Source of the DNA: Eledone cirrhosa
Lineage: Eukaryota
Reading direction: 5' to 3'
NCBI GenBank assembly: GCA_964016885.1
Contig: OZ024740.1
Span: 306,156,001 to 306,220,000, forward strand
DNA length: 64,000 nucleotides
Below are positions 47,501 to 64,000 of the stretch, piece by piece. The notes under the pieces are model-generated. The model searched no databases. It was not told the DNA's origin and saw only the letters and a list, made by a program, of their open reading frames with translations. Numbering within the stretch: the first letter of the stretch is position 1; the number at the start of each line of letters is the position of its first letter. The translations under genes were made by a program, and so were the position numbers.

Positions 47501-49570
47501 TAATATCAAATAATGGTTTCTGATTTAGGCACAAGGCCAACAATTTTTTTTTGGGGGGGGGGGGTCAATTAAATAGACCCCTGTAAGGATGAAAGGCAAA
47601 GCTAAGGGCTGTAACTCTGCCACAAAGCCTGTTGTCCAACACTCTACCAATATCGCCAATCCATCACCCAAATAATAATAATAATTTCTAAATTTGGCAA
47701 AGATCACATTTGATGTTAAGGTGGCAATTATATCAAACTCAATACTTAATTAGTTTATGATTTATTTTCACTAAGGTTCGTACAGATTACATTGCGTATG
47801 TCTTCGTTAGGTCTTCTCTTCCATAGCTCCCTTCCTCTTGAATCTCTTAATTGTATTCACTCTTCTGTAGCTACCTTCTGAATCTCTTGACTGCCTTTCT
47901 TTTGCACACTACATCTGATTCCTCTCAGACACATTTATTTTCTCATATTATTAGTGCTTTGTCATTCTGGCAAAGCACACTCATTTCATTTCTTTCTGGA
48001 TTTAAGGCCTATGTTTTGCTGCCATGCAGCATTTCATTTCATTTACAAGCACCATACAAGCTACCCTTCACACAAAGAGAGAATCCTTTTGCTGCCAGCT
48101 AAGGTACTGAACAATATCCACTGTTCTGAAAATGGGAACACAACTAATTTACTAATTAGGTCATCTAGATAATAAAAGATATCAACTACTTCTATGGAGC
48201 CTTCCAAGCTTTTTAAAAATTATTTCACATATGCTATTACTGCTAGCAATGCCTGTATCTGCCACATACAAAGATTTCCTTCACAGACAGCCTATCTGTG
48301 ATTTCACTACCCATCTTGTGCACCAATAGTTTATATTAGGTACATTATATGGAAAGCCTACCTACTACTATTTCTGCAAAACAAGCATGGTCACTAGTTA
48401 GATGGCAGTTGATTCCTGTCTTTTTTCCAGCTTAAAACGTTTGTCTTCGCTAGATTTACTTTGTAGTCTCTTGATTTTAGACATGCCATTCACAAGTGGA
48501 ATTTTTTCCCTAAGTCTTTGACAAATTCAGCTATAAAAACTGTTGTCATTAGTATACAGGACTTACCATGGAGAGCTAATAATGAAATTGTATGGTATGG
48601 AGAACTATAATTATCAAGAAGGGATAAAAACCAAACCCTGCTGGACACATACTGCGAGCTAAATTCCCTAATGAACTCATTACCAACTCTCACCTTGCAG
48701 GCAGCACCTCTGTACATGGTTGTACAGCTCTCACAAGACCTTCACCTAGTTTTCTTAGTGACCAACAGAAAACAGAACAGGGAATCCCATCAAAAGCTGT
48801 CTGTAGATGGACAAATGTTAGGTACAGTGGCTTATTCTTAGCTGCAGTTACCTCACTAGAAAGGGAGCAGCAATTATACTCTGTCCTGGCACAAAACTGA
48901 AACTATCATAAATATCTAGAAATATATGGCTAAAGTACGAAAAGGTGAATCTTAGACACACAAAAAATAAATTGATTATGTGATGAAAGAAGTTTAAGAC
49001 CTTCATGTAAATTGTTATCTCATATGCAGTCCCAATTCCCCTCATCTTTTTACACAACACTACACTCTTTAATTCAAATTATTTACCCAAGAAATCTCAA
49101 CAGCTGTAACCATTTTTCAAACCAAACAGCTGTCCCAGAGTTTGAACATTAGCAATATCAGATTTGACTGTTATCTATGGAGTTGTACCACTTGGATTCC
49201 AATGAGAGAGGTTAGGCTAAGTAGAGAGTATAAAAGAAAAGAGGTGGGGATTTCCACAGATCAGCAGAAGGGGAGACCTGAGGTCACCTTAGCAGGAATC
49301 TAAAGAATGTTTTCAGTTGTTTTCTTCATACTTAAAGCTACTGTTGTATTCCTATCTTCTCTTATCTCACTCATACAACATATTGACCTGTTAACTATCA
49401 TTCCACACTGACAATGAACAAACATACATTACACACACTCACACACACAAATACAGGCATGCATACATAGGCACACTTCTATAGTTCCAAATACAAATAT
49501 TCATAAACTATAAACAGTTTTATATATATGTTTGTTTACGTAATTATATATATATATATATATATATATA

Positions 49571-50283
49571 ACTGAACAAAAAGGAAAAACGAACACAGAC
49601 ATATATATATGTGTTCAAATCGTAATGCACCAAAATGGCTAAGGTGAAAAAAAAAAAAATACTAACTACAGACAATAGGGTTTGCTAGACTCAATTTAAG
49701 AATAAATTAAGAAAAATAAATACAAACCAGTATTGTGGTAACTACCATCACCCAGGCGGTCTTTGATAGAACCGTTTCGCAATATTATTTGTGAAGAGAT
49801 ATACCAAATTCCAGGCTCATCAGTGGGTGATGAAAATGTGTGTATATATATAATGCACATGGTTCCCAAACTTAGCGTGTCGCGCATATTTACGCCACTA
49901 AAAATAGCAGCCGGGTCTACACGACATTTGAAATAGCTCTACGAATTAACAGAGCCGAATATATCAAAAGCATGTATTGAGTTAGAAACTCAAAATAGTC
50001 TCATTACAGTAAATTAGCTCTAGGAAAAAGATTTTTCCGAGCCGTATATAACTGTATTTATTTTTCTTAATTTATTCTTAAATTGAGTCTAGCAAACCCT
50101 ATTGTCTGTAGTTAGTATTTTTTTCACCTTAGCGATTTTGGCCCATTACGTTTTGAACACATATATATATATATATGTCTGTGTTCGTTTTTCCTTTTTG
50201 TTCAGTTATATACGGCTCGGAAAAATCTTTTTCCTAGAGTTAATTTACTGTAATGAGACTATTTCTAACTCAATACATGCTTT

Positions 50284-50290
<7 letters not shown>
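49571..50290 (-). mobile_element. Fold-back hammerhead element (480-nt unit plus inverted partial copy) within (TA)n
   Basis: 49571-49724 inverted at 50053-50206; 49962-50054 inverted at 50203-50290; hammerhead at 49746-49832. Confidence 0.85.
49746..49832 (-). ncRNA. Type I hammerhead motif with U16.1>C change (probably inactive)
   Basis: 9-bp stem I CAUCACCCA/UGGGUGAUG, CUGAUGA-GC...GC-GAAA, stem III CGGU/ACCG, triplet GCC instead of GUC. Confidence 0.8.
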
Positions 50291-50320
<30 letters not shown>

Positions 50321-50327
<7 letters not shown>

Positions 50328-52093
50328 GTAAAGGCGATGCACTAGATAGAGGAAACTATAGAGGTATAAAGTTGATGGACCAGGTCATGAAAGTAACAGA
50401 AAGAGTTATAGCACAGCTGATTAGGGACCGGGTGAAAATAGACGAGATGCAATTTGGGTTTGTACCAGGGAAAGGCACCACTGATGCCCTCTTCCTTGTG
50501 AGGCAATTACAGAAAAAGTACCTAGCTAAAAGTAAGCCACTCTACTTGGCATTTGTCGACCTTGAGAAAGCCTTTGACAGAGTTCCACGCGCTGTAATCT
50601 GGTGGGCTCTTAGAAAACTAGGAGTAGATGAATGGCTTGTGAAAGCGGTACAAGCCATGTATAGGGGAGCAGTCAGCAAAGTTAGGATTAGCAATGAGTA
50701 TAGCGAGGAATTTAGCGTACAGGTTGGGGTCCACCAGGGCTCTGTTCTTAGCCCTCTCCTGTTCATCATAGTCCTGCAGGCAATAACGGAGGAGTTTAAG
50801 ACCGGATGCCCATGGGAACTCCTGTATGCTGATGACCTCGCACTCATAGCTGAATCTATGGTAGAACTAGAGAATAAATTCCAAACCTGGAAGCAGGGAC
50901 TAGAAAGAAAGGGTCTCAAAGTCAACATGACAAAGACTAAGGTCCTTGTAAGTAGACGAGAAAACAGAACCCAGATCCCCTCAGGGAAATGGCCTTGCTC
51001 AGTATGTAGGAAAGGTGTAGGTAGGAACTCCATTCTCTGCCCCAAATGCAAACAATGGGTACACAAGAGATGTAGCGGGATCTCAGGAAGCTTAATTAAG
51101 AATGTAGGATTCACATGCAGCAGCTGTGCTGAGACAGCAAACAGCAAACAGCCACAGGAAACAAGTACCACCAATCTCTGGGAGGGCCCTGTAGAAACAG
51201 TTGACAGCTTCTGCTACCTAGGTGACTGAATTAGCAATGGAGGTGGGTGTTCAGAAAGTGCAATAACTAGGGTAAGAACGGGATGGAAGAAGTTTAGGGA
51301 ACTACTACCACTGCTAGCTGCAAAAGGCTTCTCCCTCAGAATGAAAGGCAGACTGTATGATGCGTGTATCCGAACAGCGATGTTGCATGGTAGCGAGACC
51401 TGGGCGCTGAAGGTGGAAGACTTACGTAGATTAGAGAGAAACGAAGCCTGCATGCTCCGATGGATGTGTAACAATAATATATGTGAACGACAAAGCATAA
51501 ATGAATTGAGAGAGAGACTGAGCATAAGAGGAATCAAATGCTGTGTGCAGGAGAGGCGATTGCGCTGGTATGGACATGTGATGCGTATGAAGGATGATAG
51601 CTGCATAAAAAGGTGCAGAGCACTAGAAGTTGATGGAAACCGCAGAGTGGGGAGACCCAAGATGACCTGGGATGAGGTGATAAAAGCCGACCTTATCCAA
51701 TTACACCTCTCAAAGACAATGACACACGACCGTGACTTCTGGCGTCACGCAGTAATACAGAGTACCCGACCTCCCATGGGTACAAGCTGAAGCATATAGA
51801 CAATATGCCCCCACGCCCCCCACCGCAAGGTGGTCGTGGAGGTGCCACGGCAAAAAAGCACCCAGCCCACACTGTAAAGTGGACGTGTAGGCGCCACGAA
51901 AAAGCACCCAGCACTCACTGTAAATGAGGTTGGTGTTAGGAAGGGCATCCAGCTGTAGAAACCAAGCCAAATCAGTTCCTGTATGAGCAAGGCATGGTCA
52001 GCCGACCAGACACTGCCCACAACAGGACAACCCGTCTAACCCATGCTAGCGTGGAAGAACGGACGTAAAACGGTGATGATGATGATGATGATG
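50321..52093 (+). mobile_element. 5'-truncated RTE-clade LINE, young copy: RT domain, internal PHD-type finger, one in-frame TGA, 3' UTR with (GAT)n tail
   Basis: KGKGDALDRGNYRGIKL, FVDLEKAFD, GVHQGSVLSPLLF, LLYADD; ORFs 50102-51229 and 51341-51790 share a frame, split only by TGA at 51227-51229. Confidence 0.97.
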
Positions 52094-52225
52094 ATATATA
52101 TGCAAAAGTTTTATTTAAAATTGTTGGGTTACAACAAGTAAATATTTTATACAGACAGCTTCCTAATTTAATGGTCGCTTATAATATGGTACGTCAAAAT
52201 TATTTATAAAACTGTTTATATATTG

Positions 52226-52291
52226 TATTTTATCTGACGAAGGCATGCCATATTTTTAATATGGTATCCCTGAAATATGTATAATGAAATA
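52226..52291 (+). ncRNA. Type I hammerhead ribozyme motif, intact core
   Basis: UAUUUUAU-CUGACGA-AGG.AUGCCAUAUU(UUU)AAUAUGGUAU.CCU-GAAA-UAUGUA-UA-AUGAAAUA; stem I extends to about 52202/52308. Confidence 0.85.
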
Positions 52292-52331
52292 AATATGGTT
52301 TTATAAATATAGTTTCCATTTGTTTAATATC

Positions 52332-52378
<47 letters not shown>

Positions 52379-52465
52379 CGTAAACAAACACACACCCATA
52401 TTTAGATATATACACACACATATATATATATATATTATCAAATGATTCTATGGACATAATTTATA

Positions 52466-54957: not shown

Positions 54958-55030
54958 ATTTATATTAAGGCTATATTGTTACTCTGGAGTTTCACCTGTT
55001 TATCACAAGGTCATCAGCCTTAATATAAAT
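54958..55030 (-). ncRNA. Hammerhead-like motif (imperfect stems) closed by a 15-bp inverted repeat
   Basis: CUGAUGA-CCU...AGGU-GAAA-CUCCAGAG-UA; stem I junction is mispaired. Confidence 0.5.
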
Positions 55031-61416: not shown

Positions 61417-61507
61417 ACTAGAAATTGATTAACATATAAATATACATGAATAATCTCCTGTGATTATTCATGTATATTTATATGTTAATCAATTTCTAGT
61501 TATTATA
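61410..61507. repeat. Perfect 46-bp inverted repeat with 6-nt loop
   Basis: 61410-61455 is the exact reverse complement of 61462-61507. Confidence 0.97.
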
Positions 61508-61616
61508 AAATGCTCGGATATATCTTTGAGCTTATTTCCAGGCGATATGGCGCATGCCGTTATCGCATGACACCCACAATTTCGATTAAATTCATTTAAT
61601 TTATCTTAATTTTGGA

Positions 61617-64000
<2,384 letters not shown>

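Follow-up and report, generated by a model that had tools for sequence, protein, structure and literature searches.

We identified, in a 64,000-nt stretch of the Eledone cirrhosa genome (contig OZ024740.1, positions 306,156,001 to 306,220,000; the window), an insert that is a copy of a non-coding hammerhead repeat (unit ~517 nt), with two arms that start at two fixed sites of the unit within (TA)n; it is likely a non-autonomous element copied in trans by the reverse transcriptase (RT) and endonuclease of a Hydra-clade Penelope-like element (PLE). The insert (49565-50291, Table 1) consisted of two head-to-head arms within (TA)n in the order A-B-C-A'-C' (primes mark inverted copies), as claimed in an earlier note on this DNA. 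The forward arm was one 480-nt unit, after which its first 10 nt were repeated (50045-50054). The inverted arm matched the doubled unit in a single unbroken alignment, C and then A (E 1e-98, 90% including gaps), which confirms the C-A junction described in the earlier note, at 50200-50220, and the tg microhomology it reported corresponds to a 2-nt overlap of the arms. Its 480-nt unit holds for this copy, which lacks 42 nt of B, but not for the family, whose unit is ~517 nt. The outer ends merged into (TA)n as it had described, but they fell at two fixed positions and not at arbitrary internal TATA stretches. These positions, S1 (unit position 1) and S2 (unit position 432), are spaced by 86 nt, the Penelope "tail". 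The two arms were asymmetric and differed by 5 substitutions and 3 indels. No RT + GIY-YIG ORF was found in the window copy: tblastn of five PLE proteins from the same genome against the window matched nothing, and the longest stop-free frames of the forward arm had only 80 and 64 aa.

Table 1. Features of the two-armed insert (window positions; strand "." where none applies)
Feature	Position	Strand	Details
Left (TA)n target microsatellite	49545..49570	.	sequence
Arm 1, cDNA direction +: S1 start, whole A-B-C unit + 10 nt	49565..50054	+	
Segment A, also present in the inverted arm	49565..49724	+	
Type I hammerhead motif	49746..49832	-	CUGAUGA 49823-49817, GAAAC 49778-49774, 9-bp stem I
Site of the 42-nt deletion private to the window copy (517 -> 480 nt)	49829..49840	+	14-copy alignment
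Hairpin after S2, RNA sense (GGCUC...UAGAGCU)	49935..49956	-	z -2.2
Segment C, the 86-nt tail, S2 (49959) to S1 (50045)	49959..50044	+	
Bulged hairpin after S1, RNA sense (GGCUC-stem-loop-UA-GAGCU)	50016..50043	-	z -3.5
Junction of the arms, 2-nt microhomology tg	50053..50054	.	
Arm 2, cDNA direction -: S2 start (50291), tail C, C-A junction, A	50053..50291	-	
Right (TA)n target microsatellite	50286..50324	.	sequence

Several other features were seen around the insert. Identical inverted ends of another repeat (49529-49570 and 52349-52390) bracketed an entire 2.8-kb cluster, which suggests nested insertions into one (TA)n. A 5'-truncated LINE reverse-transcriptase fragment with one stop (50325-51790, + strand), presumably RTE-like, abutted the right (TA)n, and an inverted fragment 71-73% similar to it was present at 48658-48843. 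Directly before S1 in the RNA sense (49571-49590, - strand), a pyrimidine tract and CAG resembled a splice acceptor, pointing to a possible intron in A.

The hammerhead that the earlier note had placed in B was found as a type I motif on the minus strand, with a cut predicted from sequence between 49755 and 49754. Its fold had a z-score of -2.65, with 4 of 200 shuffles as good; Rfam gave no match to it at the gathering score and only microsatellite noise at E<=5. The core was intact in 62 of the 80 motifs parsed in the family, 51 of which had GUC at the cut site and 7 of which, including the window copy, had GCC. In one subfamily, stems I and III carried compensatory changes. Hammerheads with GCC at this site cut poorly. 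This triplet was seen in 9 of 106 reads of the cut site, compared with a median A-to-G rate of 0.7%, and occurred in both arms of locus L014. Another hammerhead-like core, whose stem I had 9 bp, adjoined (TA)n elsewhere in the window (54966-55030, - strand).

Searches of the 3.0-Gb genome showed that the window copy belongs to a dispersed non-coding repeat family (GC 35%; unit length from a 14-copy alignment). A first look gave 3075 candidates with the unit, 1031 with the hammerhead part, 1221 with the middle and 1337 with the tail, the best 40 of each being scored; these candidate counts are not copy numbers. The 150 fetched loci, which were top-scoring matches and not a random sample, represented 80 distinct insertions. 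Divergence was 4.3% between arms of one locus and 7.7% between loci (65-locus set). The longest arm had 913 nt, and three of the 80 loci (L068, L074 and L078, the window copy not being among them) carried two tandem hammerheads, which, judged from their sequences, could permit release of a monomer. One fetched locus contained a nested copy of a sister family, which was 66% identical over C and A and had a 547-nt unit, an 82-nt tail and a hammerhead with other stems; at one locus of this family, L185, a single arm comprised 4.0 units. Two fetched loci (L129:4900-5450 and L093:1-400) yielded additional diverged mini families that had hammerhead-like cores and the bulged hairpin discussed below. 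The same hairpin (61512-61532) was present in a small inverted-repeat element within a TA-rich array of the window (61430-61640).

Mapping the ends of the copies on the unit, as the earlier note had proposed, revealed a non-random pattern. In all 80 distinct insertions, at least one outer end was no more than 6 nt away from S1 or S2. Both ends were resolved in 38 insertions, and every one of these paired S1 with S2 (S1+S1 or S2+S2 in none), which would have a chance of 0.5^38 if each end were chosen independently. The remaining 42 included 23 with one end elsewhere and 19 with no second arm detected. Three loci (L053, L058 and L084) combined S1 with internal TA ends; together with L060 and sister locus L187, they could be eroded same-site pairs. 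In the sister family (44 distinct insertions from 63 loci), S1+S2 was found in 27/27 resolved pairs of ends, or 26/26 after one duplicate was removed. The autonomous Hydra-type element described below gave 8 of 8 resolvable two-armed insertions, with one end fixed by the query (30 loci, 12 of them re-fetched longer, both ends being required inside the fetched DNA). The longest internal TA run, (TA)6, was rarely an end (6/130 ends), and the sister family had only ~3 nt of TA homology at its start sites, so the sites are not selected by microhomology alone. Most ends were flanked by (TA)n, within which a target-site duplication is not resolvable, and inner ends were variable, with overlaps mostly of 0-4 nt or short inserts. 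An adjacent inverted truncated copy and a one-sided tail, both hallmarks of Penelope-type insertion, were present. The earlier note was right in suggesting a Penelope-type target-primed insertion.

In the RNA sense, S1 and S2 each lie a few bases before a hairpin of the form GCUC-stem-loop-2-nt bulge-GAGC. Both sites had this hairpin in the window and sister families and in two autonomous Hydra families, with inner stems that differed by site and by family; one of five folded hairpins was weak (z -0.7). As a pattern alone the motif was barely above chance (3 matches in 64 kb, 4/100 shuffles). Scanning 40 GIY-YIG loci with it gave four matches: three lay in mini-type repeats, and the fourth adjoined another hammerhead. 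The fourth led to the first autonomous family, in which a second hairpin was then found where predicted. A pattern scan of the ends of five non-Hydra PLE families did not detect the hairpin. Among the consensus sequences of Craig et al. 2021 (PMC8557442), it was recognized by eye near the ends of Hydra-2_Amil, Hydra-1_Ajap (twice) and Hydra-2_Ajap, a variant was seen in Hydra-1_Crog, and Hydra-1_Amil and Hydra-1_Obim showed none, so that 3 of 6 carry it.

The first autonomous element had a 5215-nt tandem unit composed of a hammerhead, the S1 hairpin, a 92-nt tail, the S2 hairpin and an ORF of 829 aa that was intact in L288; dozens of stop-free copies were found. By eye, the ORF contained RWR, GLYRDD, CxCx5C, CxxC and CxH motifs, and DKA in L288 or DKT in L286. 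These fit the Hydra clade as outlined in PMC8557442 (RWK, DKT, a CxCx5C linker, CxxC and CxH flanking E and N, lack of CCHH, a hammerhead and (TA)n). A predicted model of the protein (pLDDT 83.6) had telomerase RT as its best fold match; Pfam gave no significant match, and a PDB sequence search did not recognize the protein. A second Hydra-type family (737 aa) had the same two hairpins, the first with A-U replacing G-C, and its copies ended at two clusters just before them. An end of this second family with a hammerhead motif was also observed in the window (52200-52340, + strand), halting at the first start site into (TA)n. Searches for a direct parent of the mini unit found no extended DNA match in 40 of the 150 listed GIY-YIG loci or in 40 Hydra-type loci, the only matches being nested insertions and one of 24 nt. 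The partner is therefore assigned by common layout and hairpin only, and on this basis the Hydra-type protein is the likely mobilizer of the mini element. Other Penelope-like families with (TA)n ends had open RT + GIY-YIG frames of 938 and 1096 aa (L111:3809-6622 and L113:1775-5062, respectively). At one further site (L118:3200-7660), a non-Hydra Penelope-like copy was head to head with a Hydra-type end; this may be a chimeric insertion to which two different RNAs contributed.

The earlier note had also claimed a template that closes on itself. In agreement with this, 38 of 144 arms were longer than one unit, and 96 passes crossed the ribozyme cut site. Mismatches at diagnostic sites amounted to 39/484 across arms and 8/175 between repeats, compared with 35% between loci (65-locus set). 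Rare alleles were shared at 28/246 across arms, 8/121 between repeats of one arm and 152/67,816 between loci in the window family; the corresponding values in the sister family were 20/258, 34/211 and 58/27,004. Gene conversion may contribute to this sharing. Since arms share rare variants and exceed one unit, they were likely copied from a single RNA, either tandem or circular. Arm ends did not pile up at the cut site (2 against 2.5 expected, and 1 against 1.4 expected), as they should if the templates were cleaved linear monomers. A single linear master dimer predicts fixed differences between first and second passes; none appeared at the 247 and 303 sites compared (lowest P 0.11 and 0.23), a comparison of low power. 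In sister locus L185, three variants absent from all other sampled loci occurred in all four passes, and two variants alternated with a two-unit period. This pattern fits copying twice round a dimeric circle, and is also expected from an early DNA duplication. The circular fold of one natural unit had a z-score of about -6.9 (30 shuffles), although fold stability says nothing about circles.

Two forms of this RNA were considered. Slightly more probably, it would have been an uncut tandem transcript, which is favored by the GCC excess at the cut site and by the finding that ribozyme cutting is dispensable for a Poseidon element in vitro (PMC11167929). A circle made by the ribozyme, at close to but below an even chance, is favored by L185 and by the argument that arrays need regeneration because linear copying can only shorten them. 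Circles have been proposed as templates in PMC4209133.

The proposed insertion involves a Hydra-type protein, probably a dimer, that would bind one mini RNA at its two bulged hairpins, 86 nt apart, and cut both strands of the (TA)n target. From one target end, a first cDNA would be primed at S1, and from the opposite end a second would be primed at S2, on an RNA template that is longer than a unit and unbroken at the ribozyme cut site. Each cDNA would halt at a variable point, and the two would then be joined by 0-4 nt of microhomology. The pairing of S1 with S2 is what was seen in the genome; the dimer, the RNA binding and the identity of the partner are inferred. More tentatively, and with somewhat less than even confidence, Hydra PLEs as distant as those of corals, sea cucumbers and this genome might use a conserved hairpin pair to seat two RTs on one RNA, so that each cut strand is primed at its own site; ribozyme circles might have hijacked this cassette and left a rolling-circle record (the 4-unit arm, private variants in each pass and the two-unit periodicity).

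The earlier note had read the inversion as a strand inversion with a strand switch. In such a route, one priming would be followed by fold-back or strand switch, with the second arm copied from the first cDNA. The related idea of self-priming, with the tail on one of the inverted repeats, appears in Arkhipova 2013 (PMC3846280). Variants common to both arms, short microhomology at arm junctions and the containment of one arm within the other in 26/38 loci of the window family and 20/24 of the sister family all agree with fold-back, but neither arm contained the other in 12/38 (including the window copy) and 4/24 loci, respectively, and near-symmetric junctions were seen in only 2/38 and 0/24. 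With such non-nested arms and 2/62 near-symmetric junctions, fold-back is disfavored as a general route; it also leaves the ending of the second arm at the other fixed site unexplained. We consider it quite improbable, and two separate primings fit better. Arm lengths were negatively correlated, in matches that had been selected by length. The fixed sites could also have been set at the DNA level, if an endonuclease recognized the sequence that forms the hairpin, either in cDNA or in donor DNA, and resolved a longer intermediate there. The hairpin is self-complementary on either strand, genomic ends do not distinguish initiation from cleavage, and endonuclease-mediated resolution was proposed for the tail by Craig et al. 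2021 (PMC8557442); however, Poseidon tail ends coincide with in vitro reverse-transcription starts (PMC11167929), and sister-family ends with ~3 nt of TA homology are consistent with protein-positioned priming, which makes resolution at the DNA level unlikely.

Two other explanations concern the copies themselves. They have the same layout as the ends of autonomous Penelope-like elements and might be no more than pseudo-LTRs, the truncated ends of such an element, the more so as the parent searches scored the best 40 candidates each. However, the unit joins back to its own start with a period of 517 nt, its tail leads into B and the next hammerhead whereas that of autonomous elements leads into the ORF, and the tandem hammerheads of three loci and the 4.0 units in one sister arm also speak against this very improbable origin. 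Inverted repeats between (TA)n flanks are difficult to assemble, and the earlier note had raised misassembly as fatal to its reading. An assembly artefact, or a DNA-level rearrangement at microsatellites, is nevertheless hardly credible, given that the arms are asymmetric and diverged and that identical fixed ends with variable junctions recur at dozens of loci across many chromosomes. Paired priming at S1 and S2 thus remains the preferred explanation.

The origin of tandem and inverted PLE insertions and of the one-sided tail is a stated open question in PMC8557442 and PMC11167929. The enzyme that moves animal retrozymes has so far been inferred only from co-occurrence and terminal similarity. 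An RNA of ~517 nt with two defined hairpins, together with intact candidate enzymes in one genome, represents a minimal system. It predicts sharply that each target end has one start and that the starts depend on the hairpins. If a short RNA signal could be transferred to direct insertion into microsatellites, it would be useful in practice as well.

In LINE-1 twin priming, each target strand supplies a primer, and the 5' part becomes inverted and is joined through microhomology; the first priming site is the poly(A) end and the second is variable. In contrast, both sites are fixed and internal in the window family. Literature searches, mostly without subscription journals, found nothing on the window family, on strict S1+S2 pairing or on the hairpin. 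Earlier publications already describe inverted copies, tails and a pair of start sites, and note the one-sided tail descriptively; the pairing count and the hairpin are added here.

Like the animal non-LTR retrozymes, as described in PMC7229834 and bioRxiv 10.64898/2026.07.22.740005, the family is non-coding and of low GC (below 45-50%), with an intact-core type I hammerhead; its units can run head to tail, with two hammerheads in a row in 3 of 80 loci. Mobilization of those retrozymes by Penelope-like elements through circles was proposed in the same two sources. Their units measure 150-450 bp (Cervera and de la Pena 2020, PMC7229834) or 51-972 (Li et al., bioRxiv 10.64898/2026.07.22.740005), compared with ~517 nt here. 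They form arrays, whereas the present family occurs mostly as dispersed two-armed insertions of less than 2 units, and fixed paired ends and a common hairpin tie it to one PLE clade.

With Hydra-clade PLEs (Craig et al. 2021, PMC8557442), the family shares the (TA)n target, a hammerhead located upstream of the 3' end, copies in both tandem and inverted arrangement and a tail that is often at one end only; non-autonomous Chlamys elements are also reported there. The differences are the lack of an ORF and a tail of 86 nt versus 30-40, and there is no extended sequence identity to the two Hydra-type families in the same genome. Green anole Poseidon (Frangieh et al. 2024, PMC11167929) likewise has two internal starts bounding a tail downstream of the hammerhead, and extends both strands of an AT-rich target in vitro. 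Its start lies in an AC-rich stem-loop rather than a GCUC/GAGC hairpin, and that study found no strand difference in start-site use and did not address pairing within single insertions. These comparisons support placing the window family as a variant of animal retrozymes or of non-autonomous PLEs, whose insertion record favors paired priming at hairpin-marked sites.
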